From: a virus
Taxonomy: Duplodnaviria; Caudoviricetes
Strand: one strand, 5' to 3'
DNA length: 47,098 nt
Virus record (IMG/VR): IMGVR_UViG_3300037751_000128
Coordinates: 1-47,098 of that record
Part shown: one piece after another, positions 23,641 to 41,843 of the stretch
Numbering within the stretch: the first letter of the stretch is position 1
How the letters are laid out: each line of letters opens with the position of its first letter
Program-made: the position numbers and the translations under genes
The notes under the pieces: model-generated
The model's database searches: none
What the model saw: only the letters and a program-made list of their open reading frames with translations
Told to the model about the DNA's origin: nothing

Positions 23641-24144
23641 ATGCCAGTCTGCTGTAAATGCCGGCTCGAGAAGCCGTCCGCCGAGTTCTACGCTGGCAGG
23701 ACCGAGTGCAAGCCCTGCAAGAAGGCTATTTCGTGGGCTTCCAAGAAAAAGCGCATGGAACGGGACTCTGCTTACAGGGAGGCCCGCAATGCGGAGATCA
23801 GCGAGTGGAAGCGTCTAAACCCTGAGAAGGTGAGGGCTTGGAAAGCGGCGTGGCGGCGCACTCCGGTTGCAAGGGTAGCTAGTCGCCTGAGGGAGCGTTT
23901 GGCGCGTCCGGTTGGGCGTGGTGTGGCGAGGCATTGCCGTGACTTGTTAGTGCGCCAGAAGTGGTTGTGTGCGGTTTGTGCTGGCGATTTAAGGGATGGC
24001 AAGCACCTTGACCACATTATCCCGATTGCCGCTGGTGGTGGGAGTGTGGCTGGGAATTTCCAGTGGTTATGCCAGCCATGTAATTTAGCCAAATCGGCGA
24101 GGAATCCCATTGAGTTCATGCAGTCGCGCGGGCTGCTGCTCTAG
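23641..24144 (+). CDS. HNH endonuclease
   Basis: CAVC...HLDHIIPIAAGG...N...LCQPCNLAK, plus N-terminal CxxC pairs. Confidence 0.9.
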   Translation: MPVCCKCRLEKPSAEFYAGRTECKPCKKAISWASKKKRMERDSAYREARNAEISEWKRLNPEKVRAWKAAWRRTPVARVASRLRERLARPVGRGVARHCRDLLVRQKWLCAVCAGDLRDGKHLDHIIPIAAGGGSVAGNFQWLCQPCNLAKSARNPIEFMQSRGLLL

Positions 24145-25556
24145 TGGACATCAGCTACACCCCTCCCGGTCCTATTTGTCGGGAGTACCTGCTCGACCGT
24201 TCGTTCGTAAGCCTCATAGCCGGTCCGGTGGGCTCGGGAAAGACCGTTGGTTCCATTATGAAGGGCATGGCCGTCAGCATGGCCCAGGAGCCCTACGAAC
24301 GGACCAGATATACCAGGGGGATGATCCTACGGAATACCTACCCTGAGCTGAGAAGCACGGTCATAAAGTCTTTCCAGGAGTGGTTCCCGGAGGAGGTCGC
24401 CCCGATAAATTGGGCTTCACCTATTTCGGCCAAGTTGGACTTCTGGCTCCCGGATAAAACGAGGGTGAAGTGTGAGGTCCTGTTTTTAGCCCTGGACCGT
24501 CCGGAGGATGTTGGAAAGCTGAAGTCTTTGGAATTGACCTGGGCGGCTATTTCGGAGATGTCGGAGGTCCCGAAAGCTGTGTTTGACATGTGTTCTCAAA
24601 GGGTAGGTAGATATCCCCCCCAAAGATGGGGAGGGCCGACTTGGTATGGAATGTTTGGGGATACAAACTTTCCGGATGACGATCATTTTATCTACAGGTT
24701 GTTCGAGGAAGAAAAGCCGGAAGGGTTCAAGTTCTTCCGACAACCAGGTGGTTTGTTGGATAAAGGCGGGATTTACGTACCCAATTCAGAAGCCGAAAAC
24801 ATCCCCAATTTACCCGGTGGGCACGAGTACTACTTAAGACAAATTCAGGGCAAGAACAAAGAGTGGATCAAGGTCTATGCTTTAGCTCAATGGGGAACCA
24901 TAGCCTCTGGAAAGCCGGTTTACCCGGAGTGGAATGACGAGCTTCATTCCAGGGAGGTCAAACCATATGTTGGGCTACCCCTTTTACTGGGTTTCGACTA
25001 CGGACTGACGCCAGCTTGCGTGGTTGGTCAAGTTACTCCTAGGGGCCAGCTTCGTGTTTTTTCTGATCTGCTTGGTAATGACATGGGCATTCGCCAATTT
25101 GCCAGGGACGCTGTCAAGCCGTTTCTGGCGATGAACTTCCCGGGTTATAAGATTCAAGCGACTGGAGATCCTGCCGGAAATAGAAGGGCGGATTCGGACG
25201 AGAAAACTTGCTTCATGGAACTTGCTGAAGCAGGCATACCGGCAATGCCGGCAATCACGAATGAGTTTGTCGCCCGCAGAGAGGCTGTTGCTGGGTATCT
25301 CACGAAGCTTATTGATGGGCAGCCGGGGCTGGCGGTATCACCAAACGCGAGATTCATCCGGAAGGGCTTTAACGGCGGCTATCACTACAAAAGAGTCCAG
25401 GTAACCGGCGACGAGAGGTATAGAGACGTTCCGGAAAAGAACGACTTTAGTCACCCGCATGATGCTCTCCAGTACATGGCCTTATTCAGCAAGACCTACC
25501 ACGCAGCACAAGATTTCGGAAAGAAGATTGAATATCCAAAGTTAGGCGTCGTGTGA
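24144..25556 (+). CDS. terL: Terminase large subunit
   Basis: Walker A GPVGSGKT; RNase H-like GFDYG, GDPAG and HPHDALQY. Confidence 0.92.
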   Translation: MDISYTPPGPICREYLLDRSFVSLIAGPVGSGKTVGSIMKGMAVSMAQEPYERTRYTRGMILRNTYPELRSTVIKSFQEWFPEEVAPINWASPISAKLDFWLPDKTRVKCEVLFLALDRPEDVGKLKSLELTWAAISEMSEVPKAVFDMCSQRVGRYPPQRWGGPTWYGMFGDTNFPDDDHFIYRLFEEEKPEGFKFFRQPGGLLDKGGIYVPNSEAENIPNLPGGHEYYLRQIQGKNKEWIKVYALAQWGTIASGKPVYPEWNDELHSREVKPYVGLPLLLGFDYGLTPACVVGQVTPRGQLRVFSDLLGNDMGIRQFARDAVKPFLAMNFPGYKIQATGDPAGNRRADSDEKTCFMELAEAGIPAMPAITNEFVARREAVAGYLTKLIDGQPGLAVSPNARFIRKGFNGGYHYKRVQVTGDERYRDVPEKNDFSHPHDALQYMALFSKTYHAAQDFGKKIEYPKLGVV

Positions 25557-26362
25557 TCCTCGTTTGTGGGGATGCGATGCTGGATGAGTACTGGTTCGGG
25601 GAGGTAACGAGGATATCTCCCGAGGCTCCGGTGCCCATTATCTCGGTTGAAAGAACAGAAAGACGAGATGGGGCAGCTTCTAACGTCGCTAACAACGTGG
25701 AAGCGATGGGAGTAGGAGTAAGAAGGGTTTTTGGAAGCGGTGGGCGGATAAGAAAACTCAGGGTCGTGAGCAAAAAGCAGCAGATGCTCAGGATAGATTT
25801 CGATTCGCCCCAGGAACCGATTACCAGACTGGATTTGTCGGGAATAGATATCGTCGTGTTTGTTGACTACGGGAAGGGCTCTTTAGCGAGGGTCCAGGAC
25901 CTGATTCAGCAGTGCAAGAGAGAGGGGAAAACCGTCTTGGTAGACCCTAAGGGCTATGACTACGAGCGCTACAGAGGCGCGGATCTGGTTAAACCAAACC
26001 TGGATGAGATGAAAGTCATGGTTGGAGGTTGGAAGGACGAAGAGGATTTAGCGAACAAGGTACAGGAGATAAAAAGAAGGGCAGAGATTCGAGCGATTCT
26101 TCTTACAAGGGCATCTGAAGGCATGACCCTGTACGAAGACTGGTCTACCAGGATCTACGCAGAGTCCAGAGAACTGGTTGACGTATCTGGGGCTGGAGAA
26201 ACAGCTATAGCGGCTTTTGCAGTTGCCGTTCACGAGGGGCATGACTTTTATCAGGCGGCTAAATTCGCCAACAAGGCCGCTGGGGTTGCGGTTGGTAGAT
26301 TTGGAACAGCCGTAGTGGGGAGAGATGAAGTCTTCACTCTCGGAACTTGTCAGGAAGGCTAA
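25553..26362 (+). CDS. hldE: HldE/RfaE-type heptose-7-phosphate kinase (PfkB family)
   Basis: GDAMLDEYWFGEVTRISPEAPVP, DYGKG, VLVDPKG, DVSGAGET. Confidence 0.88.
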   Translation: MILVCGDAMLDEYWFGEVTRISPEAPVPIISVERTERRDGAASNVANNVEAMGVGVRRVFGSGGRIRKLRVVSKKQQMLRIDFDSPQEPITRLDLSGIDIVVFVDYGKGSLARVQDLIQQCKREGKTVLVDPKGYDYERYRGADLVKPNLDEMKVMVGGWKDEEDLANKVQEIKRRAEIRAILLTRASEGMTLYEDWSTRIYAESRELVDVSGAGETAIAAFAVAVHEGHDFYQAAKFANKAAGVAVGRFGTAVVGRDEVFTLGTCQEG

Positions 26363-26732
26363 GAGGGTTTATCTCATTGGAAATGGAGGGAGTTACGCGA
26401 ATGCTGTTCATATCGCGAACGATCTTCTCTCTGTTGGCATAAAAGCCTTCACGCTCGACCCCGCGACTTTGACTGCTTTTGCCAACGACTACGGGTATGA
26501 AACCGTTTTTGCCCGGTGGATCGAGAAAGTAGGAGAACCCGGAGATTTGCTAATAGCTCTCTCCGGGTCTGGTAAGTCCCCGAACATCCTGTCTGCGGTG
26601 TGGACTGCGGAAAATATAGGAATGATGGCTGTGCTAGTCACCCATTATCTAAATGGGGTGGATATGCAGCAGTCAGAAGAGGAGCAATTGGTACTTGGTC
26701 ATCAGGTGCTGAAGGAGCTGCGTGACCGTTGA
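26325..26732 (+). CDS. gmhA: GmhA-like SIS sedoheptulose-7-phosphate isomerase (compact)
   Basis: GNGGS..NA.HIA.D, TAFANDYGYE.VF, GDLLIALSGSGKSPN. Confidence 0.85.
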   Translation: MKSSLSELVRKAKRVYLIGNGGSYANAVHIANDLLSVGIKAFTLDPATLTAFANDYGYETVFARWIEKVGEPGDLLIALSGSGKSPNILSAVWTAENIGMMAVLVTHYLNGVDMQQSEEEQLVLGHQVLKELRDR

Positions 26733-27291
26733 CGAGCTGATAGATTTCGAGACCGACATAGCGCGAGAGTTCGAGGCTGGGCGCATTCATGCTCCGGTCC
26801 ATCTCAGCGGCGGGAACGAACTTCAGCTAATCGAAATCTTCAGAGACATCCGCCCGAATGACTGGGTGCTGTCCACATGGCGCTCGCATTATCACGCGCT
26901 GCTGAAAGGAATCCCCGCCACGGAGGTCAAGGCGCAGATCATCTCCGGGCGATCCATGTTTATCAGCAGCGTAGAGCATCGGTTCATGTCCTCTGCCATT
27001 ATGGGCGGCATGTTACCCATAGCGTGCGGACTGGGTTATTCAGGGGAGAGGGTGTGGTGCTTCGTGGGGGATATGTGTGAAAGTATCGGGGCGTTTCATG
27101 ATGCGGTGAAGTTCGCTGACGGCTACGGCCTCGATATCCGCTTCGTAGTGGAGGACAACGGCCTCAGCACGAATACGCCGACTAAGGCAGCGTGGCGCTA
27201 CGGGAGGGTCAGAGAAACCAGGGTTACGCGCTACACCTACACGCGCAGATGGCCGCACTATCAGCCGTTACCCGGGCAGCATGGATTTTAA
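26722..27291 (+). CDS. ThDP-dependent enzyme, E1 alpha-like subunit
   Basis: PVHLSGGNE, WRSHYHALLKG, GDM...EDN ThDP-binding motif variant. Confidence 0.8.
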   Translation: MTVDELIDFETDIAREFEAGRIHAPVHLSGGNELQLIEIFRDIRPNDWVLSTWRSHYHALLKGIPATEVKAQIISGRSMFISSVEHRFMSSAIMGGMLPIACGLGYSGERVWCFVGDMCESIGAFHDAVKFADGYGLDIRFVVEDNGLSTNTPTKAAWRYGRVRETRVTRYTYTRRWPHYQPLPGQHGF

Positions 27292-27787
27292 CGAAGCCGT
27301 CAACGCCGCCATGCTGATGCTGGCAGCAGAGGAGCGCACGTTATTTGTGGGTCAGTCCGTGCTGTGGGACGGCGCGACGATGTATCACAGCCTGAAAGGT
27401 GTGCCATTAGAGAAACGTTTGGAAATGCCGGTTATAGAGGACTTCCAACTAGGTTTTTGCGTCGGCCTGTCGCTGTCGGGGAAGATTCCAATTTGCATCT
27501 ATCCGAGAATGGACTTTCTGTTACTTGGCATGAATCAACTGGTCAACCACTTGGACCGCTTCTGTGAGATGGGAGACTTCAGGCCAAAGGTGATAGTCCG
27601 AACGCGGGTAGGGCCGAAGCGTCCGCTTAACGCGGGGCCGCAGCACACGAACGACTACACTGGGGCTTTCGAGCGAATGCTGCGCAATGTGGAGGTAGTA
27701 GAGCTGAACCACTCAGCAGATGTGATGCCGGGATATCGTGATGCGCTGTCGAGTACGCATTCGACTTTGATTGTGGAAAATGGCTGA
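27281..27787 (+). CDS. ThDP-dependent enzyme, E1 beta/transketolase pyrimidine-binding subunit
   Basis: FVGQSV, LEMPVIE.FQLG...G, NQLVNH, GPQH; lacks the C-terminal domain. Confidence 0.8.
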   Translation: MDFNEAVNAAMLMLAAEERTLFVGQSVLWDGATMYHSLKGVPLEKRLEMPVIEDFQLGFCVGLSLSGKIPICIYPRMDFLLLGMNQLVNHLDRFCEMGDFRPKVIVRTRVGPKRPLNAGPQHTNDYTGAFERMLRNVEVVELNHSADVMPGYRDALSSTHSTLIVENG

Positions 27788-27977
27788 GAATGGACTTCAG
27801 GTAGTTGTTCGTTTCCCAGAAACTATCTCACATGAAGTACAAGGTCCTGCTCTGCTATGGCTGGAGCTGACGCTTCGTACTCTTACGAAGCTCGATATCC
27901 GTGTTGTGAAGGACCTTCAGGGCGACGACAGCAAACTGCGCAAGCTAATGACGATCCACCAGCGGGAGAAACTCTAA
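27780..27977 (+). CDS. Hypothetical protein in the sugar cluster
   Basis: Coupled to both neighbours. Confidence 0.5.
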   Translation: MAENGLQVVVRFPETISHEVQGPALLWLELTLRTLTKLDIRVVKDLQGDDSKLRKLMTIHQREKL

Positions 27978-29107
27978 TATTCGATGAACATGCAGAACTA
28001 GTCGCCGGCAAGGAAATGACGCTGGACGGCTCCAACATCGGCTACCACCGAGAGCGTGTTGAAGCCTGGGAGCGCGGAGAACGGGTAGCGCCTATCTTCA
28101 TGGACATAGCCTGGACTCGGAAGTGTCAGGCTGCTTGTCATTTCTGTTATGCGCAGGCGCAGGCCTCGGAAGGCGGCGAGATCACTCGTGATATCGCCAT
28201 GCAGTTTTTAGAGGATGCCGCCGAGATCGGCGTACTCGCCATGAATTACATATCGGACGGCGAGTCAACGATGGTGCCTTATTACGCCGAGGCTGTTGAG
28301 AAGGCTACAGACCTGGGCATTGCAATCGGAGCGGGTACTAATGGAATTGCTCTACCCCAGGAAGTGCTGGAGAGAATCCTGCCGCGCTTGATGTCACTTA
28401 GAGTTAACTTCTCTGCCGGCGAGAAGAAGCGCTATGCAGAGATCATGGGCCTCAAGCAAGCGGTCTATGACATCGTAGTCAGGAATATCCGCAATGCTGT
28501 TCGTCTGGTAAGAGACAACGGCTGGCCGTGCGTCGTGAACATGAATCTCGTCTGCGACCCGAAGGACGCCGACCAGTTGCTGCCGTTTGCCAAGCTCGCC
28601 AAGGATTTAGGGGTCCACTACGCGATCATCAAGCACTGTGCTGTAGATACCGATGGCGTTCTGGACGTGGATTACAAGGCGTATGACCAGATCGAGGAAA
28701 CGCTGCGCCAGTGCGAGGAACTGTCGAATGACGATACCAAGATCGTCGTCAAGTGGAACAAGCTAAAGCACAAAGGCATCAGGCAATATTCGCGGTGTTT
28801 TGGACCTCCGTTTGCTCTGCAGATGTCGGGGAATGGGCTCATAGCCCCGTGTGGACCTTTGTTCAACGAGAAGTACCGTGCTTTCCATATCGGCAACATT
28901 ACTACTCAGCGCTTCAAGGATATGTTTCATGGAGAACGGTATTGGGAGGTCATGAGATACCTCGCCTCTGACGAGTTCGACCCCAGAAAGCGCTGCCCCT
29001 CAGACTGCATGCAGAACCTCACAAACGACTGGCTATACCGATATCTTGATGGCAAGGTGACGTTCCCGCTCACTCCAGCGCCGGCCAACGTGAGGTTCCT
29101 TGCTTGA
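27977..29107 (+). CDS. Radical SAM enzyme with SPASM/twitch-like C-terminus
   Basis: CQAACHFC (CxxxCxxC); C...G.IAPC...C...C. Start uncertain: ATA 27977 has a GGGAG RBS; first ATG is 28016; track start is 27857. Confidence 0.88.
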   Translation: MFDEHAELVAGKEMTLDGSNIGYHRERVEAWERGERVAPIFMDIAWTRKCQAACHFCYAQAQASEGGEITRDIAMQFLEDAAEIGVLAMNYISDGESTMVPYYAEAVEKATDLGIAIGAGTNGIALPQEVLERILPRLMSLRVNFSAGEKKRYAEIMGLKQAVYDIVVRNIRNAVRLVRDNGWPCVVNMNLVCDPKDADQLLPFAKLAKDLGVHYAIIKHCAVDTDGVLDVDYKAYDQIEETLRQCEELSNDDTKIVVKWNKLKHKGIRQYSRCFGPPFALQMSGNGLIAPCGPLFNEKYRAFHIGNITTQRFKDMFHGERYWEVMRYLASDEFDPRKRCPSDCMQNLTNDWLYRYLDGKVTFPLTPAPANVRFLA

Positions 29108-29556
29108 TTCTCATAGTTGGGCATCGCGGGATTCTTGGTTCAGCGCTGGAGCGGCATGGGAGAACTACACGCTACGAGAGGCGGCTTGGAGAAAATCACC
29201 ACATTACGGACGCTTATACCTCGGCTATCCTCTGCGCCGGCACTAAGGGCTTTCACGAGTGCGACGGTAATGATGGAGTATTCCGGGACGACGTAGACGG
29301 CAATATCAGCCTCATCCGTGCGCTTCTGAAAAACCAGGTATTTGTGGTGTTCATCTCCACCGAAGCGGTGGAGCGGATAGGGCATCGTGCCGCCTACTCC
29401 AGCAACCGGCTGCTGGTGGAGCAATACCTGTGGGGGCAGGAGAACAACGCGATTGTGAGACCCGGGAGGTTCGATAAGTCCAACGTAGATGATCTGGCCA
29501 TATTCTGTCTACGCATTGCACAGAGTAAACAACAGGGGATTCATCGCTGGCCATGA
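29104..29556 (+). CDS. Short NAD(P)-binding sugar epimerase/reductase (RmlD-like)
   Basis: LIVGHRGILG Rossmann motif, FIST, AAY, IVRPG. Confidence 0.65.
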   Translation: MILIVGHRGILGSALERHGRTTRYERRLGENHHITDAYTSAILCAGTKGFHECDGNDGVFRDDVDGNISLIRALLKNQVFVVFISTEAVERIGHRAAYSSNRLLVEQYLWGQENNAIVRPGRFDKSNVDDLAIFCLRIAQSKQQGIHRWP

Positions 29557-30317
29557 GCGACCTGGAGCGCGATGGAGTGTTTGTACGCCGTAGAGCAGTT
29601 ACACCCGATGCTCTGGCGCGCGTGATAGACGAATATCAGAGTGCTGACCATGACCTTGCAGAGCCTGTCAAGCATCAACCGATTGTAGGGTTTTGGACTT
29701 TCGTTGAGGGCGACAAAAAGAGATTCCGCCTGTTAGAGAAGATGCCTGCTCTACAGGCGCTAGCTCATGACGTGGCCGAATATGTCTCAACGATCTCTCA
29801 AGGCAAGCTGCGGCTTCTGGAGAGCATCGTATTCAACAAACCCCCTAAGAGGGCTGGGCTGCTGCACTGGCATCAGGACGTGAGTTACTTCCCTTTGGAG
29901 CCCAACAACCAGATAGCGTGCTGGATGCCGTTTGACGTTGTTACAGAGAACTCGGGAGCTATGCTCTACGCTCTACGCTCGCATCTTGACGGCACTAGGG
30001 GATCTAGCAACCTGCTCTCCGGAGTTCCGTTAAACGGCGAGACACGAGATCCTTTGCCCAAGGACCCGCGTCTGGAGGGATACGAGGTTAAGTGCTTCGA
30101 GATGTTCCCTGGCGACATGCTGATCCACGATGGCCGGACGTGGCACGCAAGCGGACCTAATACGTCTACGCGCGAGCGCCGTGGATTGTCGTTTCGCTAC
30201 ATCGTGGGCGATACATGGTACATGCGGCGTGGTGGTTCGGCTGGGCCGTTCACGAAACAGACTGACTTGAGGGACGGTGAACTGGTAGATGATCCTGCGT
30301 TCCCGGTCATGGCGTGA
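29553..30317 (+). CDS. 2OG-Fe(II) dioxygenase (PhyH family)
   Basis: FNKPP, HWHQD, GDMLIH...WHASGPN...RR. Confidence 0.88.
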   Translation: MSDLERDGVFVRRRAVTPDALARVIDEYQSADHDLAEPVKHQPIVGFWTFVEGDKKRFRLLEKMPALQALAHDVAEYVSTISQGKLRLLESIVFNKPPKRAGLLHWHQDVSYFPLEPNNQIACWMPFDVVTENSGAMLYALRSHLDGTRGSSNLLSGVPLNGETRDPLPKDPRLEGYEVKCFEMFPGDMLIHDGRTWHASGPNTSTRERRGLSFRYIVGDTWYMRRGGSAGPFTKQTDLRDGELVDDPAFPVMA

Positions 30318-30718
30318 AAGTAGTCCTCTGCCACGGCATATTCGATCTCCTGCACATGGGGCATATCGTGCATTTGAGGGGAGCCAGGAAGTTCGGGGAC
30401 TGGGTGGTTGTTTCAGTGGTGGCTGATAAGTACGTAACGAAGACGACTTTGGTGTATGACCAAGTAGAGCGTCTGGCTTTGCTGGCTGCCGTCAGGTACG
30501 TGGATGAGGTTATTCTTTGCGAGGCCCCAACCCCGGAAATGGTTATTGAAAAGCTACGGCCTGACGTGTACGTGAGAGGGTCGGACTATATCGGTAAGAG
30601 AATGCCGGAGGATGGAATCCTTGGACAGTTGTGGATTCCGGTGCGGCACACAGAGTCCATTCCAATACACACATCGGACATCATAGAGAGAATCAGGAAT
30701 GTGGTTACTTCCGAGTAG
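30314..30718 (+). CDS. Cytidylyltransferase-family nucleotidyltransferase (HldE-II/TagD-like)
   Basis: GIFDLLHMGH (HxGH), RYVDEV, RPDVYVRGSDY, TSDIIERI. Confidence 0.85.
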   Translation: MKVVLCHGIFDLLHMGHIVHLRGARKFGDWVVVSVVADKYVTKTTLVYDQVERLALLAAVRYVDEVILCEAPTPEMVIEKLRPDVYVRGSDYIGKRMPEDGILGQLWIPVRHTESIPIHTSDIIERIRNVVTSE

Positions 30719-31352
30719 AGGAAGACCTCATTTAGCGCAGAGGTTGTTCGACAAAGGCAACTTTCAGACACAGGGTTTGTTGATTCTGTGCCACGACGAT
30801 TCAACCCAGTACGACAAGGTAAGACTCCCGGATAAGTGGGAGAAGGTCGTTTTCAGGAAAGATTTTCTTTCCGGGAAGATAAACAAAGGGTTTAGGTACA
30901 GACCCAACGAGACTTGGTATGGGCTTCTGAACGACGACCACCTACCAAAGACCGAGAACTGGGATACTAAATTAGTAGACGCCCTTAAATGGCCTATAGT
31001 CTGGCCGCAGGACAACTACGCAGACCGCATATCTACGCCAGTGATGAGCGGGGACTTCGTAAGAAAACTGGGATGGTTTGCGTGTCCCGACCTGAAGCAT
31101 TTTTATATAGATGACGTCCACGAGCTGATAGCTAGAGAATTCGGCTGCAAGAGGCTGGATTCAGTGATGGTGTCTCACGAACATGTGAACAAGGGGAGGA
31201 TGCCGCCTGACAGGACCTATATGGAAAGGCCGTCCATGATGGCGGATCGACAAGCTTACTTTGTGTGGCTTAAGGAGAAGTGGCCTGATATCCGCGAAAG
31301 GATTGGTTGTCCCGAACGAATGCTGGCGCTGGATAAAGCTTCAGAGGACTGA
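30699..31352 (+). CDS. GT-A fold glycosyltransferase
   Basis: LLPSRGRP, LLNDD metal-binding motif, HFYIDD, HEH. Confidence 0.65.
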   Translation: MWLLPSRGRPHLAQRLFDKGNFQTQGLLILCHDDSTQYDKVRLPDKWEKVVFRKDFLSGKINKGFRYRPNETWYGLLNDDHLPKTENWDTKLVDALKWPIVWPQDNYADRISTPVMSGDFVRKLGWFACPDLKHFYIDDVHELIAREFGCKRLDSVMVSHEHVNKGRMPPDRTYMERPSMMADRQAYFVWLKEKWPDIRERIGCPERMLALDKASED

Positions 31353-31800
31353 CGGCTACGCCATAGAAGAAGACTTCAGGATGATCGAGCCCTACCTTCC
31401 GGATAGGGTCGAATCCATACTGGATATAGGTTGCGGCATGGCTGGGATTGATGTCTTGCTGAAGCGCAAATTTCCACATGCAAGGCTGGAACTGCTGGAC
31501 GGAGACGGCGAGGTTGGAAGTTGCGGGTTTACCAGCGTGATAGGAAACTCGCGCAAAGCTACTGAAGCTTTGTTGAAGGCAAACGGGGTCGAGTGCGACA
31601 GGTGGCACGAGGTAGGAACAAAAGAGGAGCTGAAGGCTGATCTGGTGATTTCTCTGCTCTCGTGGGGATTTCACTACCCGCTAGACACATACCGAGTCAA
31701 GGGCTTCTGCATCGCGGACCTTAGACGTGGAAAGGAAGACACAAGGGGCGTTGTGATAGCGGCGGCGCAAAAATACAGGCGCTGCGCTTTTGTATGCTGA
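31303..31800 (+). CDS. Class I SAM-dependent methyltransferase
   Basis: ILDIGCGMAG, DLVISLLSWGFHY; start inferred at TTG (track start 31261). Confidence 0.8.
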   Translation: MVVPNECWRWIKLQRTDGYAIEEDFRMIEPYLPDRVESILDIGCGMAGIDVLLKRKFPHARLELLDGDGEVGSCGFTSVIGNSRKATEALLKANGVECDRWHEVGTKEELKADLVISLLSWGFHYPLDTYRVKGFCIADLRRGKEDTRGVVIAAAQKYRRCAFVC

Positions 31801-32414
31801 CGGTTCTTTGTGTTCTTAGGACTGGAGAGGAATACACCCCTGAGTGGGTTAGAAAACTACGGGATGGCGTAGCGAGGAATCTGACGGTTCCCTATACGTT
31901 CAAGTGCCTCTCGGACGTAGACGTACCTTGCGAGCGGATACCTTTAGTTCATAACTGGCCTGGCTGGTGGTCGAAGATCGAGCTATTCAGGGTGGTAGAC
32001 GGCCCTACCCTTTACCTCGATCTAGACACCGTGGTAACCGGCAGTCTGGATCACCTTGCAGACCTGGACATGGACTTTGCGATGCTGAGCAACTTCCACG
32101 TCCCATCGTTTGTAGGTTCCGGTGTGATGTGGTTCAGGAAGCCTTTAAAACGCGTCTACCTGAGATTTTGCGAGAAGCCGTACAAGTGGATCGACTACCA
32201 CGAGAAAAAGAGGAATGGGCCTTATCTGGGAGATCAAGCTTTCATATGGGATTCGCTGAGACAGAGAGTTGACCATCTCCCGATGGAAACTATCAAGTCA
32301 TACAAGTTTCATTGCGTGAGCGGACTTCCCTCGGAAACCTCGATTGTCTGTTTCCATGGTCTTCCGAAGCTCACTGACGTTAAAGCGGATTGGATAGAGG
32401 AAAACTGGAAATGA
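31794..32414 (+). CDS. GT-A fold glycosyltransferase (GT8-like)
   Basis: WWSKIELF, LYLDLD (DxD), GDQAFI, VCFHGLPK. Confidence 0.8.
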   Translation: MLTVLCVLRTGEEYTPEWVRKLRDGVARNLTVPYTFKCLSDVDVPCERIPLVHNWPGWWSKIELFRVVDGPTLYLDLDTVVTGSLDHLADLDMDFAMLSNFHVPSFVGSGVMWFRKPLKRVYLRFCEKPYKWIDYHEKKRNGPYLGDQAFIWDSLRQRVDHLPMETIKSYKFHCVSGLPSETSIVCFHGLPKLTDVKADWIEENWK

Positions 32415-32674
32415 GTCTGGCGATGCTGAATCGGATTAAGGCGCTGGAAGTAAAGGTAACGGCGCTGGAGGGCAAGATCTCAGAGCAGGCAAAGTATGCT
32501 GAGGTAGTCAGGCAAATCATAGACAGTCAAACCCTTGCCAGCAAGCCGTTACGCAAGATGTGCCCCAAGTGCGGGGTGATGCCCGCGTACTTCTTCCACG
32601 TTAAGAACTGCAACGCCGATAAGAACAAAAATAATGGCGAAACTGACGGAAACGGAGCTCCGGGCTCTACTTGA
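32411..32674 (+). CDS. Hypothetical coiled-coil/Zn-finger protein
   Basis: ATGA coupling; CPKC...H..C. Confidence 0.5.
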   Translation: MSLAMLNRIKALEVKVTALEGKISEQAKYAEVVRQIIDSQTLASKPLRKMCPKCGVMPAYFFHVKNCNADKNKNNGETDGNGAPGST

Positions 32675-34850
32675 CGACGAGATAAGGGGGGCGGTTGGTT
32701 ACAGCTCCTCTGAACTCTCACACCAAAGGCAAACCGCTCTTGAGTATTACTACGGGCAGCCTTTTGGCAACGAAGTAGAGGGAAGGTCGTCGTACGTCTC
32801 CCGGGATGTGGCGGACACCATCGAGTGGATCATGCCCTCCCTCATGCGTATTTTCACTGGGGGAGACACGATTGTTCGCTTCGAGCCGCAAGGTCCGGAA
32901 GACGAGAAGAACGCCCAACAGGCTACAGATTACGTCAACTACATATTCCAGCGGCAGAACGATGGGTTCCTGTCTCTATATACCTGGTTCAAGGACGCCC
33001 TCCTATCTAAAAACGGTTTCGTAAAGGTCTATTGGGAGAAGTACACCGAATACAAAACGGAGACCTATGAGTACCTGACTGATGATGAATTCGCGATGAT
33101 CCTTCAGGATAAGGATGTCGAGCCTGTGGAGCATACAGAGGATGTACAGGTGGACCCCATGACCGGGGTTGCTACCAAGGCCCATTCTCTGAAGGTCAGG
33201 AAGAAGACCGAAAACGGCAAGTGTTGTGTAGAACCTGTACCCCCGGAAGAGGTTTTGATAAACCGCTATCCGGTAGCTCCGCTAAAGAAGAACAGATTTA
33301 TCTGCCATCGTCGCAGAGTCACCATCTCAGAGCTTAAGGAGATGGGGTTCGAGGATGTTGATGATGTTACCTCCTACGAAGAAAACGACTTCAACGAGGA
33401 GAGAATCGCCAGATATGCGTTCGATGAGACCGACCAGAGCGACCGCTCGGATTCCACTCCAGGAAATAGGTACGTCTGGCTGGCTGAGGCTTACTGGAAG
33501 ATAGACAGGGATGGAGATGGTATTGCTGAGCTTAGGCATACCATCATGGCGGGGGACAGGATTCTGGAGGATGAAGAAGCCGACTCCTGCCCGTTCGTAA
33601 CCCTCACTCCCATAATTCTCCCCCACAAGCTTTACGGAATGTCTGTCGCCGATCTGGTGATGGATATCCAGTTACTAAAGTCTACGGTCTTCCGTCAGAT
33701 CCTGGACAACATGTACCTCGCCAACAATGGGAGATACATGGCCCTGGACGGGATGGTGAACATAGACGACCTTCTCACCAGCCGTCCGGGCGGGATTGTC
33801 AGGGTCAAGACGTTCGATGCGGTGAAGCCGATGCAACCTCCTCTTTTGGGAGCGCCGGCTTTTAATCTTCTGGAATACATCGACCAGATAAAAGAGAACA
33901 GGACCGGGGTGAACCGAGCCCCGTTAGATCCGGATTCAATCAGCAAGCATGCGACTGGGGCTGCGATTATCGACCAAGCCACACAGGCGAGGGTTGAGCT
34001 GATCGCTAGAGTCTTTGCCGAGACCGGGGTCAAGGACTTGTTCTACGCAATTTTGGAGAACGTCCAGAAGTATCAGGACCAGTCGAAAGTCATAAGGCTC
34101 AGAAACGAGTGGGTCAAGATGGACCCGAGGGAATGGACGAACAAGTTCGACCTTACCGTCATGGTTGGACTTGGTACTGGGTCGAAGCAAACCCAGCTAG
34201 CTGCTTTGAACGAAGAGACCCAATTCCAGTTGGCTGCGTTGCAAGGCGGTTTACCCATCGTCACCCCGGAAAACGTCTATCACCTGCGCATGAAGGCCTT
34301 GGAGGCTAAGAACATCAAGGGTGGAGACTTGTTCTACACCCATCCTGACAAGATGCCGCCACAACCGCCTCAGCAAGATCCTGCTATTGCCAAGGCTGAA
34401 ATGGACGCTCAAGTGGATCAAATGAAGATCCAGGCCAAGAGCGAGGGCGACCAGATGAAGCAGGAATTCCAGGCTGCCATGACCGAGTTCAAGGAATCCA
34501 TCGAATATCAGAAGCACCAGGAAAAACTGGCTGTGGACCTTGAGAAGCAAAGGGAACAGCAGGTAGCTCAGTCCGCCGAGAGCGATAAGGCTAGTGAGAA
34601 GGAAAGGGACATGAAGCTGATTGACATGATCTGGGAAAGGGGTCAATCGGAGCAACAGAGGGGTGCTGAGGAGCAGAAGGCGAAGCTGGATGCCGTGTTG
34701 AACATGGTCCAGGAAAACAGCAAGTCCCAGAACGAGATGCTGATCAAGGTCCTGGAAGCTGCGATGGCCGAAAGAGAGAGTGAAGTTGCCGAAAGGGATG
34801 CGAAGGGCAAGGTCAAAAAGACTGTAAGCAGGGTGAAGAAAAAGGAGTGA
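32634..34850 (+). CDS. Portal protein (P22-like, long C-terminal barrel)
   Basis: ALEYYYG...VS.DVADTIEWIMPSLMRIF, WFKDALL.KNG, coiled-coil tail. Confidence 0.92.
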   Translation: MAKLTETELRALLDDEIRGAVGYSSSELSHQRQTALEYYYGQPFGNEVEGRSSYVSRDVADTIEWIMPSLMRIFTGGDTIVRFEPQGPEDEKNAQQATDYVNYIFQRQNDGFLSLYTWFKDALLSKNGFVKVYWEKYTEYKTETYEYLTDDEFAMILQDKDVEPVEHTEDVQVDPMTGVATKAHSLKVRKKTENGKCCVEPVPPEEVLINRYPVAPLKKNRFICHRRRVTISELKEMGFEDVDDVTSYEENDFNEERIARYAFDETDQSDRSDSTPGNRYVWLAEAYWKIDRDGDGIAELRHTIMAGDRILEDEEADSCPFVTLTPIILPHKLYGMSVADLVMDIQLLKSTVFRQILDNMYLANNGRYMALDGMVNIDDLLTSRPGGIVRVKTFDAVKPMQPPLLGAPAFNLLEYIDQIKENRTGVNRAPLDPDSISKHATGAAIIDQATQARVELIARVFAETGVKDLFYAILENVQKYQDQSKVIRLRNEWVKMDPREWTNKFDLTVMVGLGTGSKQTQLAALNEETQFQLAALQGGLPIVTPENVYHLRMKALEAKNIKGGDLFYTHPDKMPPQPPQQDPAIAKAEMDAQVDQMKIQAKSEGDQMKQEFQAAMTEFKESIEYQKHQEKLAVDLEKQREQQVAQSAESDKASEKERDMKLIDMIWERGQSEQQRGAEEQKAKLDAVLNMVQENSKSQNEMLIKVLEAAMAERESEVAERDAKGKVKKTVSRVKKKE

Positions 34851-36226
34851 GCCGCGCTCAATACGAGAAGCTTTACGCAGGGACAGGCTACCGTGAGTTT
34901 TCGCCCGGCGAGACTCGCGTCAACGATTTCAGGAACCTCGTCAAGACGACCGGGGACGATGTAATCATCGACTTCGGATGTGGAACCGGGAGGGCGGCGA
35001 AGCAGCTCGGCGCCATCGGGCTCGATTTCGTAAAGGCAATCGAGACAGATATCGAGTTCCACCAGCACGACCTGAGAAAGCCGCTGCCGGTCCGGGGTAC
35101 GGTCGGCTTCTGCACCGACGTTATGGAGCACATCGCTACTCGTGATGTAAAGCGAGTGCTTAAAAACATCATGTCGGCGGTGAAGAAGTGCTACTTCCAG
35201 ATATGCACCGTTCCTGACGAGTTCGGCGGCGGGGCGCTGCATCTCACGGTAAAACCCTTTTGGTGGTGGGCGAAGCGCATGCAGGAAGTGGGGCTAGTCC
35301 GCTACGCGCGCCAGGAGAAACACCACGCGATATTCGTGGTCGGCACGCAAACGGTGCGCGAGCTTGAAAAGCGCCTGGTGCTGATGGAGCCGGAAGAAGT
35401 CCTGCGAAAGAACATCATCGCGAACATGGAAGCCGGCTACGAGGAAGCCCGGCCATTCCAGATCCAGCAGACCGAAGTGGCTCTACTCGCGGGCGGTCCG
35501 AGCCTAGAGCAATTCGACCGGCCTGATCTACCGATCATCACGGTGAACGGGGCTTACAACTGGGCTGTCGAGCGCGGGTATAAGCCAAAGGCGCAGCTTA
35601 TCGTTGATCCTCGCTACTGGAACAAGCGCTTCGCTCATCCGGCGGTGGAGGGTTGCAAGTACCTGATTGCCTCGCAGTGCCATCCAGGGGTCGCGCAGTC
35701 TGTGCCGAAGGACCAGGTGTGGCTGTGGCACTCGGGAGACGTAGCGGCCCCGGTGATGCGCGAGCTGGGCGAGGAGAACGGACACCGGGAATGGATGGCG
35801 ATATTCGGAGGCTCGACCATCATGCTGCGGGCGTTTCCGCTGCTCGCGATGCTGGGGTTACGGAAGTTCCACGTGTGGGGCTTCGATTCATGTCTCGGTG
35901 AACGAGGGGTGCATCACGCCTACGCGCAGCCGGAGAACGACGGCGACAAGACGATGGACATCACAGTTGGCGGGCGGACGTTCGTTTGCCACCCGTGGAT
36001 GGCGGTTCAAGCGCAGGAGTACGTGGACCTCGTGAAGCACATGCTGCCCGAGGATCTTGAGATGGTGTTGTACGGCAACGGGCTGATAGCCCACATTCTG
36101 AAGACAGGAGCGGTATATGGCGGCGAGCGCATGGCGGGTCTACTCGGAAGCGAAGAAATACATTCAGACGGGGGACATCGACCTCAACACGAGCGTAATT
36201 GTAATGGGGTTGTTCAAGACGTCTAG
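34847..36226 (+). CDS. Methyltransferase fused to a DUF115/MptE-like (Maf-type) transferase domain
   Basis: IDFGCGTG and CTDVMEH at the N-terminus; LLAGGPSL, IITVNG and GFDSC at the C-terminus. Confidence 0.75.
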   Translation: MSRAQYEKLYAGTGYREFSPGETRVNDFRNLVKTTGDDVIIDFGCGTGRAAKQLGAIGLDFVKAIETDIEFHQHDLRKPLPVRGTVGFCTDVMEHIATRDVKRVLKNIMSAVKKCYFQICTVPDEFGGGALHLTVKPFWWWAKRMQEVGLVRYARQEKHHAIFVVGTQTVRELEKRLVLMEPEEVLRKNIIANMEAGYEEARPFQIQQTEVALLAGGPSLEQFDRPDLPIITVNGAYNWAVERGYKPKAQLIVDPRYWNKRFAHPAVEGCKYLIASQCHPGVAQSVPKDQVWLWHSGDVAAPVMRELGEENGHREWMAIFGGSTIMLRAFPLLAMLGLRKFHVWGFDSCLGERGVHHAYAQPENDGDKTMDITVGGRTFVCHPWMAVQAQEYVDLVKHMLPEDLEMVLYGNGLIAHILKTGAVYGGERMAGLLGSEEIHSDGGHRPQHERNCNGVVQDV

Positions 36227-37796: not shown

Positions 37797-39521
37797 ATGC
37801 CGACGACCGTTACCTCGACCATCGGCACGGCGACCCGCGACTACTCCACCATCGCGGCGTGGGAGGATGCGACCGATGTAAATATCGTCACCGCCGACGA
37901 GCTGCACGTCGGGGAGTGCTACAACGATGCCGAGTTCGCGGAAGCGGTGACGATAGCCGGGGCGACGACGGACGCGACGCGCTATCGGCACCTGACGGTT
38001 GCGGCGGGAGAGTCGTTCGCGGATCACGCGGATAAGCTGACCAACGCGCTCAAGTACGACCAGACCAAGGGTGTGGGGATTAGCTCCAGCACCTTCGGAG
38101 CCCAGGTGGTCTACCTGCAGGAGAACTACGCGAGGGTAAGCCGGGTCCAGATCGAGGCCATCAGCACGGCGGATCGCGGTGTTCGGATGGATAACACGAA
38201 TAACCTTGCTAGTGGCGTGCTGGTTGATGGAACGTACAGGCAGCAGGGATTCTATCTTTCCTCGACAACTGCGAAGTGCGTTAACTGCCTCGCCATTGTT
38301 CGCAACACCGCTGGGGCGGTGACTGGTTTTCACTTTCAATACTTCAACGTAAGCACGTGGGGAACATTCAACTGCACTGCAGTTCGCCCTTCTGATCTTA
38401 CGGGGACGGTCGGGGGAGGATTCAGGCATAGCAATAGTGGGCGTGCGGCGGTAGCGAAGAACTGCGCGGCATTTGGTTTCGTAGGAGGCAATGAGGGATT
38501 CTCGAATGCTGCGTGGGCAAGCTCTGATTACAACGCGACCGACAGCGCCACGGCGACCGGCGGGGGTAACGACCTTGTTGAGCTCACTTACGCCAACCAG
38601 TTCGAGAACGTAGAGGACTCAACCAGCGATTTCAGGGTCAAGTCCGGCTCTGACCTTGACGGTGCCGGCGTAACCGATTCGAGCAACACGAACGACCTCG
38701 ACATCGTAGAGCAGACGCGGGAAGCGAACCCGACGATAGGGGCGTGGGAGTTCATTGCGGGCAGTGGTTCTGGCATCACGGTAACGCCTGACAAGGCTGA
38801 TCTCACCCTAACCGGCAACGCCCCAACAGTCTCGGCGACGGCGAACCATCGTGTCACCCCGTCAGTCGGTGCGCTAGCGATTACCGGCTTCGCGCCGACC
38901 ATCACCGTGGCATCGCAGAGTATCACCGCCACCCCGGGGAAAGCCGACCTCACGCTTACGGCAAATGCCCCTACCGTAGCGGTAACGCAGCATCAGTCGG
39001 TAGCGCCGGGGAAAGCCGATCTCGCGATCACGGGATTCGCCCCGAGCGTACTCGTCGGGATAGTGACGCAACCTGGGGCTGGAGCGCTGGCAATTACGGG
39101 GCACGCGCCGACAGTCGCGGTAACCGCGAATCACCTGGTCAATCCGGGGACGGCGGCGATAGAGGTAACTGGTTTCGCGCCGACCGTTTCAGGTGGCGAG
39201 GCTCCTGTTGTTGACGTACAGACCAGGGGTGTCTCCGGCAGGAAATACCGGGTTATCTGGGAAGAAGACGAAATCCTGGAGGAGATCCAGGAGGAAGAAA
39301 AGGCAGTCGCCAAGGAGAAGAAGAAGCTAAAGATCCTGATAAAGCAGGCTAAGAAGCTTCCCAAAACCGGGATTCTCTACAGGCAGGCAGAAGCAAGAAT
39401 CGAGAGGTTCGAGCAGAAGATAGACGACAGGCTGGCAAAGATTGCCGAGCTTCTGTCGATCATCAACGAAGGCATAAACGCAATAGCAGACGACGATGAG
39501 GAAGTGTTGCTTTTGAGCTAA
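37797..39521 (+). CDS. Head fibre/decoration-like protein: beta-helix domain, six Thr/Pro-rich repeats, coiled-coil tail
   Basis: Beta-solenoid-like N-terminal half; six P-x-x-x-x-(L/I)-x-x-T-x-x-A-P repeats; ends DDDEEVLLLS. Confidence 0.6.
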   Translation: MPTTVTSTIGTATRDYSTIAAWEDATDVNIVTADELHVGECYNDAEFAEAVTIAGATTDATRYRHLTVAAGESFADHADKLTNALKYDQTKGVGISSSTFGAQVVYLQENYARVSRVQIEAISTADRGVRMDNTNNLASGVLVDGTYRQQGFYLSSTTAKCVNCLAIVRNTAGAVTGFHFQYFNVSTWGTFNCTAVRPSDLTGTVGGGFRHSNSGRAAVAKNCAAFGFVGGNEGFSNAAWASSDYNATDSATATGGGNDLVELTYANQFENVEDSTSDFRVKSGSDLDGAGVTDSSNTNDLDIVEQTREANPTIGAWEFIAGSGSGITVTPDKADLTLTGNAPTVSATANHRVTPSVGALAITGFAPTITVASQSITATPGKADLTLTANAPTVAVTQHQSVAPGKADLAITGFAPSVLVGIVTQPGAGALAITGHAPTVAVTANHLVNPGTAAIEVTGFAPTVSGGEAPVVDVQTRGVSGRKYRVIWEEDEILEEIQEEEKAVAKEKKKLKILIKQAKKLPKTGILYRQAEARIERFEQKIDDRLAKIAELLSIINEGINAIADDDEEVLLLS

Positions 39522-39524
39522 ATC

Positions 39525-39855: not shown

Positions 39856-40869
39856 ATGGAACAGACCCAAGCCAGTGCGCCGGGGCAACCCCAAGCGCAA
39901 GCGCCGGTTCATCCAGTCCACGAAGAAACAGCGACGGTAGAAGCCCTTACCAAGTGGGTTGGCGAGAATCCGGACAACGACCCACACGCAGGAACCGACC
40001 TAGAGGCTCCCCCGCAGGAGCAGAAGGTAGAAGAAAAAACAGAAGAAAAGACAGAGGAAAAGGCTGAGGAAGCAGAGACCATCGAAATAGACGATGAGGC
40101 TCCGCTATTCGAAGTCCAAGATCCGGATGACAAGACCAAGACGGTAAAGGTCTCGCTCAAGCAGCTCCGCGAAGAGCGGATGATGAAGGCGGACTATCAC
40201 CGCAATATCCAGCGGGTAAAGCAGCAAGAGGCCGAGATTCAGGAGAAGGTCAAGCAAGCCTCTCTACAGGCCCAAGGCGATTACCTGAAGCAACTGGAGA
40301 CCCACAAGCAACTGGTACTAAAAACGGTTGCTCCTGAGCTCCAGAACGTGGATTTGAACAAGCTGGCGCAGGAAGACCCCGCAGAGGCTCAGAGGCTGTT
40401 CTTCCGCCAGATTCAACTAACGCAGACTTTACAGGCTATCGAGACTGAGCAGCGCCAAGCCCAGGAGAAGCTTCAAAAAGACCAGGAGGCCGCGTTATCT
40501 CAGGCAGTCGAGAAGTCGCGCCAGACCCTAGAAGCAGACATCCAGGGCTGGAATAGCGATGTGTACCAGAAGGTGTTGGGGTCGGTAGCTAAAGACTACG
40601 GCTTCGACAAGAAGGATGTCGAGAGTGTGTACGACGCGAGGTTGATCAAGGTTTTCCACGATGCCTACCAATACAGGCAGCTCCAACGAGCCAAGCCCGA
40701 GGTTAGTAAGCGAGTCGTGGCAGTTCCCAAGGTTGTAAAACCCGGAAGTGCAGAAAAGCCAAGTCCCCGCAGTGATGCAGACGACGCCTTCAACCGGCTC
40801 AAGAAGTCCGGTTCGCTGGATGACGCTGCTAATTGGTATCTACAAAAACAAAAAGGGAATAAGCGATGA
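39856..40869 (+). CDS. Scaffolding protein
   Basis: Acidic N-terminus, ADYHR, coiled coil, C-terminal RLKKSGSLDDAA; precedes the capsid gene. Confidence 0.8.
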   Translation: MEQTQASAPGQPQAQAPVHPVHEETATVEALTKWVGENPDNDPHAGTDLEAPPQEQKVEEKTEEKTEEKAEEAETIEIDDEAPLFEVQDPDDKTKTVKVSLKQLREERMMKADYHRNIQRVKQQEAEIQEKVKQASLQAQGDYLKQLETHKQLVLKTVAPELQNVDLNKLAQEDPAEAQRLFFRQIQLTQTLQAIETEQRQAQEKLQKDQEAALSQAVEKSRQTLEADIQGWNSDVYQKVLGSVAKDYGFDKKDVESVYDARLIKVFHDAYQYRQLQRAKPEVSKRVVAVPKVVKPGSAEKPSPRSDADDAFNRLKKSGSLDDAANWYLQKQKGNKR

Positions 40870-41843
40870 CTGCACCAACTGGAACTCTCCAGACGTATCA
40901 GGCTATCGGCAACAGGGAAGACCTGACCGACGCCATTTACAACATCTCTCCCATGGAGACGCCGTTTGTCTCCCGTGCGCCGAGGGTCAAGGCAAAGGCT
41001 CGCACGCATGAATGGCAGACCGATGCGCTCGCCGCCGCTGCTGCCAACGCCCACATTGAGGGCGATGACTCGGCGGTAAACACCGCAGTTCCGACCACCA
41101 GGCTCTCTAACGTCACCCAGATTTTCAAGAAGACCATTCAGGTCTCTGGAACTCAGGAAACCGTTGACAAGGCAGGTCGGGACTCGGAGATCGCCTACCA
41201 ACTGATGAAACGAGGCAAAGAGCTGAAGCGAGATATTGAGTACGCTTTGACTCAGAACCAAGGGACCGAGGTTGGTGATAGCGCATCTGCCAGGAAGCTT
41301 GCATCGGTGGAATCGTGGCTTGCCACGAACCACACGAACAAGTCTTCGGGTACTGGGGCGTATACCTCCGGCGGCTGGAACGGGACTCTTGTAGGAGCCC
41401 CGACCGAGAAGACGCACCTTGGGTCATTCAGTGAAACCGACCTCAAGAACGTCATTTCTGAGGTTTGGACTGCAGGGGGTGATCCGAGGCTAGTTCTTGT
41501 CGGCCCCAACGCCAAGAAGCGCATCTCCGGCTTTGTAGGTATTGCGGACGTTACCAAAGAGGCCGGTAATACCGCGAGGGCCACCAGGATCATCGGTGGC
41601 GCGGATGTGTATGTGTCGGACTTCGGGGAACACTTGGTTGTGCCAAGCCGCTTTAGCCGTGACCGGACGGTTCACCTTCTGGACATGGACTACTGGGCGG
41701 TTGCGAATCTGCGCGGGATGACGAAGGAAAAGCTCGCGAAGACCGGAGACTCGGAGAAGTGGCACCTTCTGACGGAACTCACCCTCGTTTCCAGGAACGA
41801 GGCGGCTTCCGGGAAGATTGCCGGCGTAGACGGAACCATCTAG
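40866..41843 (+). CDS. Major capsid protein (DUF5309/SU10 type)
   Basis: GNREDL.D.IYNISP.ETPF, HEWQTD, N.TQI, ELKRD.E, LAKTGDSEK. Confidence 0.92.
   Translation: MTAPTGTLQTYQAIGNREDLTDAIYNISPMETPFVSRAPRVKAKARTHEWQTDALAAAAANAHIEGDDSAVNTAVPTTRLSNVTQIFKKTIQVSGTQETVDKAGRDSEIAYQLMKRGKELKRDIEYALTQNQGTEVGDSASARKLASVESWLATNHTNKSSGTGAYTSGGWNGTLVGAPTEKTHLGSFSETDLKNVISEVWTAGGDPRLVLVGPNAKKRISGFVGIADVTKEAGNTARATRIIGGADVYVSDFGEHLVVPSRFSRDRTVHLLDMDYWAVANLRGMTKEKLAKTGDSEKWHLLTELTLVSRNEAASGKIAGVDGTI

Follow-up and report, generated by a model that had tools for sequence, protein, structure and literature searches.

We analysed a 47-kb window of viral DNA (47,098 nucleotides; IMG/VR record IMGVR_UViG_3300037751_000128, Duplodnaviria, Caudoviricetes), in which a block of twelve genes for the synthesis and transfer of a sugar lies at 25553-32414, between the genes of the large terminase subunit (terL) and the portal. 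The window is the whole virus record and is bounded by 127-bp direct terminal repeats; the CheckV completeness estimate is 38%, and relatives measure 42.8-47.1 kb. Family searches identified the portal, capsid and adaptor as SU10-type, and integrase and repressor genes mark the phage as temperate, so that by its gene content it is an SU10-like temperate podophage. The genes of the block, its flanks and the related genes downstream are listed below.

24144..25556, + strand: terminase large subunit, left flank (phrog_979 E 0.0016; identity 95% in relative L003, 72% in L007)
25553..26362, + strand: HldE/HldA-like sugar-phosphate kinase, GAGE replacing GAGD (TIGR02198 E 3.6e-80; PDB 4e84 E 1.3e-62)
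26325..26732, + strand: short GmhA-like SIS isomerase, 135 aa (TIGR00441 E 3.9e-23; PDB phosphoheptose isomerases E 2e-19; alignment)
26722..27291, + strand: thiamine diphosphate (ThDP) enzyme, truncated E1-alpha-like subunit (PF00676 E 1.1e-9; phrog_34187; GD..N motif at 116)
27281..27787, + strand: ThDP enzyme, truncated E1-beta-like subunit (phrog_34187 E 1.1e-22; PF02779 weak)
27780..27977, + strand: protein of 65 aa outside known families, predicted to partner the radical S-adenosylmethionine (SAM) enzyme as a subunit (synteny, ESMFold2 model)
28016..29107, + strand: radical SAM/SPASM enzyme, start possibly ATA 27977 (PF04055, PF13186; CxxxCxxC at 37-44)
29104..29556, + strand: short Rossmann protein resembling short-chain dehydrogenases/reductases (SDR), possible reductase, weak (PF01370 E 0.006; GxxGxxG, YxxxR)
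29553..30317, + strand: PhyH-family Fe/2-oxoglutarate (2OG) dioxygenase (PF05721 E 7.5e-22)
30314..30718, + strand: HldE/HldC-like nucleotidyltransferase (TIGR02199 E 3.7e-25; phrog_7878; PDB 5x9q)
30699..31352, + strand: GT-A-type glycosyltransferase (phrog_14945 E 3.2e-17)
31303..31800, + strand: SAM methyltransferase-like protein, weak, start uncertain (PF05175 E 0.008; DIGCG motif)
31794..32414, + strand: GT8-fold glycosyltransferase of the phage P1 PmgQ family, 206 aa (phrog_1962 E 3e-42; PmgQ matches; model pLDDT 96.5)
32634..34850, + strand: SU10-type portal, right flank (PF23899 E 3e-215)
34847..36226, + strand: methyltransferase fused to a PF01973 domain, Maf-like (PF01973 35.9 bits, cut-off 34.6)
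37797..39521, + strand: Thr/Ser-rich 574-aa protein, alternative candidate acceptor (S+T 17.6%; no family match)
40866..41843, + strand: major capsid protein (MCP), Ser/Thr/Gly-rich loop at about residues 152-188 (PF17236; loop comparison)
42182..43618, + strand: tetratricopeptide repeat (TPR) domain fused to a GT9-fold, heptosyltransferase-like domain, hereafter TPR-GT (TPR Pfams; model pLDDT 93.5)

The twelve open reading frames (ORFs) of the block start directly after terL, all lie on the + strand and overlap their neighbours, as an original prediction made from the sequence alone had described. A 13th ORF (32411-32674, 87 aa) stands between the block and the portal and is also found in the cluster-free relative L007. 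The single possible gap, of 38 bp, precedes the radical SAM gene if translation starts at ATG 28016; the alternative start, ATA 27977, overlaps the upstream stop. Here a TAATA element (27975-27979), downstream of GGGAGA, links the stop of the 65-aa ORF to the in-frame ATA, a possible ATA start. No sigma70-like + strand site was found inside the cluster, the sole + site in 21000-40000 being at 22263, upstream of the small terminase subunit gene (terS), in a scan of little power (4 sites versus 9.2 expected from shuffles). Furthermore, no clear transmembrane stretch was found in the twelve proteins (highest 19-residue Kyte-Doolittle mean 1.55) or in the two outlying transferases at 34847-36226 and 42182-43618 (1.61 and 1.67), and no cluster protein had a Pfam or PHROG match to a GtrABC-type membrane flippase or transferase. 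The claims of two real outlying transferase genes, of no flippase, GtrABC-like or obvious membrane protein and, within the power of the scan, of no internal promoter gap are thereby borne out. The predicted gene labels were well supported for the kinase (PfkB/HldE), the isomerase (SIS/GmhA), the ThDP alpha subunit (E1_dh), radical SAM with SPASM, PhyH, the nucleotidyltransferase (CTP_transf) and two glycosyltransferases (PHROGs), and weaker for the Rossmann protein (Pfam E 0.006), the methyltransferase (E 0.008) and the ThDP beta subunit (Pfam E 0.033; PHROG E 1e-22). The GC content of the cluster matches that of terL and portal. Outside the block, an HNH endonuclease gene lies between terS and terL (23641-24144), and a DNA methyltransferase of phrog_757, outside the C5 family, at 19010-19594.

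For the outlying TPR-GT, the C-terminal domain (residues ~190-460) aligned with GT9 structures, namely 3tov (Z 17.5, root-mean-square deviation 3.3, 252 residues aligned), WaaF (Z 16.9), WaaC (Z 16.2) and TibC (Z 15.9). This GT9 fold of the catalytic domain fits a heptose donor. A GT41 assignment was also considered, Foldseek having ranked SPINDLY and OGT first, but the TM-scores were only 0.3-0.37 and the GT9 fold was preferred. Sequence searches added little: the best 60 matches of the TPR-GT profile to PDB sequences all fell on the TPR part, no NCBIfam model matched the C-terminal domain of either TPR-GT or the Maf-like protein at E 0.01, and a PDB sequence search with the Maf-like domain was empty. 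We take the PF01973 domain of the latter to be Maf/DUF115-like; the protein matched viral PF01973 clusters of the Atlas at 0.91, and is not found at this site in L006. The modelled layout of TPR-GT, an N-terminal TPR and a C-terminal GT-B domain, resembles that of FlmG, which binds and O-glycosylates flagellin (PMC7591256; this and the other publications below are cited from excerpts). The likeness to FlmG and Maf enzymes extends to the PF01973 domain, if its equivalence with Maf holds, but those enzymes place CMP-nonulosonates on flagellin, and the window genome shows no Neu/Pse synthesis genes.

Relatives of TPR-GT were found in 470 viral stretches. Among the best 80, which come from related phages and are not independent, the MCP gene ends 0.3-2.1 kb upstream of TPR-GT in 73 and the adaptor follows downstream in 71. 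The interval between TPR-GT and the adaptor (0-6.4 kb) is filled by a changing set of GT8-like, GT9, methyltransferase and aminotransferase genes. Other family members carry a radical SAM gene of a more distant kind within this interval (L048:8468-9508; L053).

The GT8-fold enzyme of the block is closest to Gat1 (6mw8, Z 18.0, root-mean-square deviation 2.9, 193 aligned), with glycogenin, GlyE and LgtC tied at Z 17.1-17.2 and the PBCV-1 capsid transferase at Z 13.0. P1 PmgQ, of the same family, is labelled putative morphogenetic, with no function in the records. In Citrobacter phage phiNP (L029:5463-7300), a PmgQ-family gene adjoins a gene labelled alpha-2,3-sialyltransferase, just before terS. 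Homologues of the GT-A enzyme, which carries NDD and IDDV motifs, occur in 69 actinophage records and adjoin a nucleotidyltransferase gene in both regions read. These are from Streptomyces phages Samisti12 and Stigma (L026:5369-7069; L027:5369-7087), with two glycosyltransferases and a nucleotidyltransferase, the second transferase being homologous to window 30699-31352.

A candidate acceptor lies next to TPR-GT. In TPR-GT carriers, a loop of the capsid protein is rich in Ser, Thr and Gly, with 34% S+T versus 16% elsewhere (50 sequences). As a control, 88 loci were picked by capsid similarity, of which 86 were full length; 20 with too little flank were dropped, near-copies were merged, and a locus counted as negative if TPR-GT was missing within 2.5-4 kb. 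The loop averaged 39.5 aa with 13.8 S+T in 60 TPR-GT-positive MCPs, and 31.1 aa with 8.1 S+T in 16 negative ones, a contrast that is suggestive only and points to the capsid loop as acceptor. The loop is thus the predicted lead candidate, and the Thr/Ser-rich 574-aa protein is an alternative candidate. N-glycosylation of the capsid was dropped: the loop in the window has three N-x-S/T sequons, but the median across 50 capsids is 1. The stretch from the Maf-like gene to the scaffold (36117-39521) encodes, besides the 574-aa Thr-rich ORF, a 146-aa protein with 27% S+T (phrog_644) and four small ORFs rich in third-position GC; it is strongly divergent in L006 and absent in L007, and may hold head decoration or fibre proteins, which could be further acceptors.

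Six genes of the block form a mobile module: the HldE-like kinase, GmhA-like isomerase, ThDP enzyme, 65-aa ORF, radical SAM/SPASM enzyme and nucleotidyltransferase. A search with the radical SAM protein gave 16 viral, 7 genome and 80 metagenome loci (the best of 98), which together with L045 made 104 loci examined; 92 had near-full matches, and 82 remained after near-identical copies were merged, a step that kept a short twin over the long locus L017. In the 29 distinct loci with at least 52% radical SAM identity and at least 3 kb upstream, the partners were the ThDP enzyme (29), small ORF (27), nucleotidyltransferase (26), kinase (25) and GmhA (25), and a glycosyltransferase was present in 24/24 loci with at least 2 kb downstream. 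A quick tree (approximate likelihood ratio support, SH-aLRT, only) has two clades. One, of 55 rows, includes the small-ORF loci; the other, of 27 rows, consists of apparently cellular loci with no small ORF, and the ThDP enzymes seen there are mostly full-length E1. Two of the genome loci are a phage-like contig in a Sulfuricaulis metagenome-assembled genome (L019) and a short contig in a Rhodospirillaceae one (L020).

Same-strand terminase, portal, capsid or adaptor genes lie near the module in 13/17 viral loci, of about four head types and with 7/13 from one lineage; L001 and L016 had no match to the structural-gene queries. In the SU10-like family, the module occupies the terL-portal site (window, L003) or lies just before the adaptor (L045, within the interval behind TPR-GT, and L009). 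A more distant relative (L007; portal 68%) has no cluster at the terL-portal site and retains TPR-GT and the GT8 gene behind the capsid gene. Judged from these comparisons, the block is a hypervariable cassette and a composite, in which a mobile heptose-type module derived from cellular glycan clusters joins family-wide head-operon transferases that are usually without it. TPR-GT41 (OGT-like) genes stand beside the same module in structural regions of other phages (L015:11398-13233, L015:18445-20232, L016:18270-19970).

The transferases might instead glycosylate a cytoplasmic host protein, or a heptose metabolite might be released as a counter-defence, with no virion coat. All the enzymes appear soluble, TPR-GT enzymes act on proteins and P1 PmgQ is without a stated function, all of which would suit such a role. 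However, no host target is indicated, and the head-operon position and swappable cassettes better fit a surface trait under diversifying selection, so we hold this explanation to be highly improbable.

Within the module, the radical SAM gene is preceded by the 65-aa ORF in 27/29 distinct loci, and the 65-aa protein falls mostly into viral Atlas clusters without Pfam. An ESMFold2 model of the two proteins scored 0.83 versus 0.00 for the best of 3 controls, with at least 73% contact agreement between runs and a partner pLDDT of at least 77; the mark used is reached by 116/157 solved complexes and 2/215 mismatched pairs, and holds only roughly with self-made alignments. The 65-aa protein is therefore predicted, from the model, to bind the SPASM region of the enzyme. 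The idea that the ORF encodes a precursor of a ribosomally synthesised and post-translationally modified peptide was disfavoured by its conserved, folded-looking sequence and the predicted interface. The radical SAM profile had no match in a PDB sequence search, and no close relative was found in 50,697 GenBank phage records, with 2 distant matches only (23%).

The radical SAM clade always comes with a ThDP enzyme, which is a split E1 in 20 of the 29 distinct loci and of acetolactate-synthase (ALS) type in 9. In the closest phage (terL 95%, MCP 95-96%), the site between terL and portal is likewise taken by the module, but an ALS-type enzyme replaces the split E1, the nucleotidyltransferase is 42% identical, and the SDR, PhyH and Maf-like genes are lacking. 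ALS-type enzymes (YerE, ErwE) add acyl branches to keto-sugars (PMC9306805), and the E1-like heterodimer EvdU5/EvdS3 is hypothesised to do so for eurekanate (PMC10338323). That the two types replace each other in a single slot suggests acyl branching, the reaction for which the first is used and the second proposed. At the level of family and motif, the locus resembles these pathways (YerE/YerF for yersiniose, ErwE, the proposed EvdU5/EvdS3) in having an ALS-type or E1-alpha/beta ThDP enzyme beside sugar-nucleotide genes and a possible reductase. It differs in that their keto-hexoses or keto-pentoses come, in the excerpts, from dehydratases or decarboxylases, whereas here the ketone would have to come from a radical SAM enzyme that acts on a heptose-type sugar.

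Radical SAM enzymes are able to oxidise or dehydrate sugars. The enzyme is the candidate ketone source because family searches recognised no dehydratase for the usual 4-keto(-deoxy) acceptor among the twelve ORFs. Alternatively, the ThDP enzyme may make a ketose phosphate upstream of the isomerase. For the remaining enzymes, the SDR-like protein had no match in related loci, and PhyH homologues adjoin several cellular versions of the same radical SAM gene and occur in 1/29 other module copies.

Collectively, synteny, the GT9 fold of TPR-GT and the lack of known partners for DNA modification make it reasonably probable that a virion protein is glycosylated with a tailored NDP-heptose, probably C-branched, of the phage's own making. 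The original prediction of a self-made sugar on the virion is thus still the best supported, but had overlooked the composite and mobile nature of the module; the synteny survey and the hidden Markov model and structure searches it had proposed yielded the conserved gene order, the heptose-type families and the GT9 and GT8 folds described here. From the gene content, folds, synteny and ThDP swap, which are established, we infer the reactions, product and acceptor as follows. The GmhA-like isomerase, HldE-like kinase, nucleotidyltransferase and a host phosphatase would yield an NDP-heptose, one carbon of which would be oxidised or dehydrated to a ketone by the radical SAM/SPASM enzyme and the 65-aa protein predicted to bind it. 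The ThDP enzyme would then transfer an acyl group taken from a 2-oxo acid to form a branch, the reaction of YerE in yersiniose synthesis, and the SDR-like protein, PhyH dioxygenase and methyltransferases could trim the branched sugar further. The family-wide TPR-GT9 would then dock on a head protein and prime it, and the GT-A, GT8 and Maf-like enzymes would extend or cap the glycan. Synthesis and attachment would take place late in infection, by soluble transferases of the head operon.

Several observations weigh against this reading, the first group concerning the sugar. The kinase scored 269 bits against TIGR02198 (cut-off 345), the isomerase, with HIANDL where HIAGEF is usual, 82 bits against TIGR00441 (cut-off 209), and the nucleotidyltransferase 88 bits against TIGR02199 (cut-off 181.5); with all the heptose-pathway scores below the NCBIfam cut-offs, the sugar may be other than heptose. 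The kinase has GAGE, with Glu for the usual Asp, which we take to be the catalytic residue; Glu occurs in 3/9 aligned kinases and GAGD in 6/9. A GmhB-type phosphatase (TIGR01656) was found in 0/5 phage records (the window and four related), with the control positive in 14/14, and this step may be supplied by the host. The lack of a recognised dehydratase belongs here as well. Compared with the ADP-heptose pathway (GmhA, HldE, GmhB, HldD, with GT9 enzymes that include the protein heptosyltransferase TibC), the locus shares homologues of GmhA, the kinase and the nucleotidyltransferase and the GT9 fold. Besides the missing GmhB, the scores and the GAGE motif, it differs in having no clear HldD, in the added radical SAM, partner ORF, ThDP, PhyH and methyltransferase genes, and in the fusion of GT9 to TPRs.

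The GAGE motif and the missing GmhB, together with the truncated GmhA, E1-alpha/beta and SDR proteins, could be taken as decay, the block then being recently acquired and partly non-functional cargo. Every ORF is intact and coupled, however; the short GmhA and E1-alpha/beta forms recur across many loci, GAGE is common to L003 and L019, and the GC content matches that of terL and portal. We give this explanation very little credence.

A second group of adverse points concerns the target. The module was seen in 1/80 TPR-GT loci (L045), the L003 phage carrying it beyond the fetched flank; TPR-GT is thus normally independent of the module, which is here only a candidate source of its donor. The closest module relatives (79-92% radical SAM identity) are often outside head operons, with L004, L005, L118 and L119 after primase or polymerase genes and the modules of L001 and L019 ending an early arm that carries nonulosonate genes. 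A structural gene lies within 11 kb in only 14/24 loci, opposite-strand matches included. The limits of the capsid loop were chosen with the data in view, capsids without TPR-GT still have 26% S+T there, and the TPR-GT label changes three times on the tree, giving 3 independent pairs in total, 2 of them supported and never in the opposite direction (sign test p 0.5). Finally, similar pelagimyophage and cyanophage gene sets have been published as host-surface modifiers (PMC7029224, PMC12801897). Those 'LPS' (lipopolysaccharide) islands resemble the block in their HldE-like kinase and nucleotidyltransferase (36 records) and many glycosyltransferases, but they belong to large myoviruses, were read in the excerpts as host-surface modifiers without test, and stand apart from this radical SAM family with its two distant phage matches.

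Such a role would add the sugar to the host surface (the core or O-unit of LPS at the cytoplasmic face, or else flagellin or pilin), altering receptors and blocking other phages. The phage is temperate, LPS enzymes (WaaC, WaaF and LgtC) are among those with GT9 and GT8 folds, TPR-GT-B and Maf enzymes target flagellin, cellular versions of the module lie within glycan clusters, and its closest relatives are often in early arms, several with WbuX, TIGR04372 and NeuABC genes. Against these points stand the overlapping ORFs, which tie the genes into the packaging and head operon with no separate promoter-like site, the lack of an apparent membrane protein, the family-wide position of TPR-GT next to MCP, and late lytic expression, which, if correctly deduced from position, leaves little time for receptor change. 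Modification of the host surface is in our judgement unlikely. Several phage or phage-like loci (L001:5970-16726, L019, L113-L131) combine the module with genes for an acetyltransferase, DegT, WbuX, a TIGR04372 transferase, NeuA/B/C and HisF, which looks like a nonulosonic-acid pathway of phages.

The position directly after terL, and the presence of a 2OG dioxygenase, also bring to mind a sugar placed on the phage's DNA, ahead of packaging or in its course, as a protection from restriction. A phage kinase/HAD, cytidylyltransferase and GT-B set puts heptose on 5-hydroxymethylcytosine (5hmC), and such clusters lie near terminase genes (contig 53, 10.1101/2023.12.21.572611); close relatives of the module also adjoin polymerase and primase genes. 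The likeness is a phage kinase and nucleotidyltransferase tied to heptose modification. In that system, however, 5hmC is made by a C5-methyltransferase and 5mYOX and modified by a T4-beta-GT-like enzyme, none of which was detected here. A C5-methyltransferase was found in 0/5 records (control 9/14) and a ThyA-family gene in 0/5 (control 10/14); a search for Tet_JBP (PF12851) gave 0/6 records with the positive control silent too. The dioxygenase is PhyH-type, matching PhyH only, and is lacking in most copies of the module, and the GT-A motifs differ from the DDD...EDY reported for DNA glycosyltransferases. DNA modification is therefore decidedly improbable.

Turning back to virion glycosylation, the nearest published case is that of mycobacteriophages (Che8, Rita, cluster O; Freeman et al. 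2023, as described in PMC11600133 and PMC11256854). Both systems have phage-encoded glycosyltransferases and a methyltransferase, with a capsid acceptor shown there and proposed here. The excerpts list transferases and an O-methyltransferase for the mycobacteriophages, with no donor synthesis, whereas the window has a sugar-building module and TPR-GT9. No mycobacteriophage was among the phage matches of the GT8, TPR-GT and GT-A proteins (tblastn; 32, 3 and 69 records), a search that remote homology could escape. No published description of the module or the TPR-GT9 family was found in a search that most subscription literature lay outside. The original statement that there is no characterised equivalent therefore holds, within these searches, for the sugar chemistry, which is undescribed in the literature found, and fails for the general idea, virion glycosylation and phage heptose activation for DNA being already in print. 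New here are the exchange of ThDP types in phages that are nearly identical, the predicted partner of the radical SAM enzyme, the occurrence of TPR-GT9 across the family and a specific candidate for the acceptor.

A broader proposal, which we put forward tentatively and rate as somewhat less than evenly likely, is that a large family of uncultured SU10-like podophages performs cytoplasmic protein O-glycosylation, in which TPR-GT9 heptosylates the Ser/Thr-rich capsid loop and swappable cassettes create phage 'serotypes'; the present member would add a branched heptose through an undescribed two-subunit radical SAM enzyme and a ThDP carboligase. The locus provides testable parts, namely a small soluble radical SAM/ThDP sugar pathway, a radical SAM enzyme for which a dedicated partner is predicted, and, in TPR-GT9 and the capsid loop, a candidate pair of enzyme and acceptor; phiNP and P1 offer cultured models for virion glycosylation. 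It also bears on the old assumption that the 'LPS genes' of phages serve to remodel the host. If the proposal is true, environmental podophages would commonly have glycan-coated capsids of diverse kinds, which would then be more than a peculiarity of mycobacteriophages, and some phages would produce rare sugars that may be lacking in their hosts.

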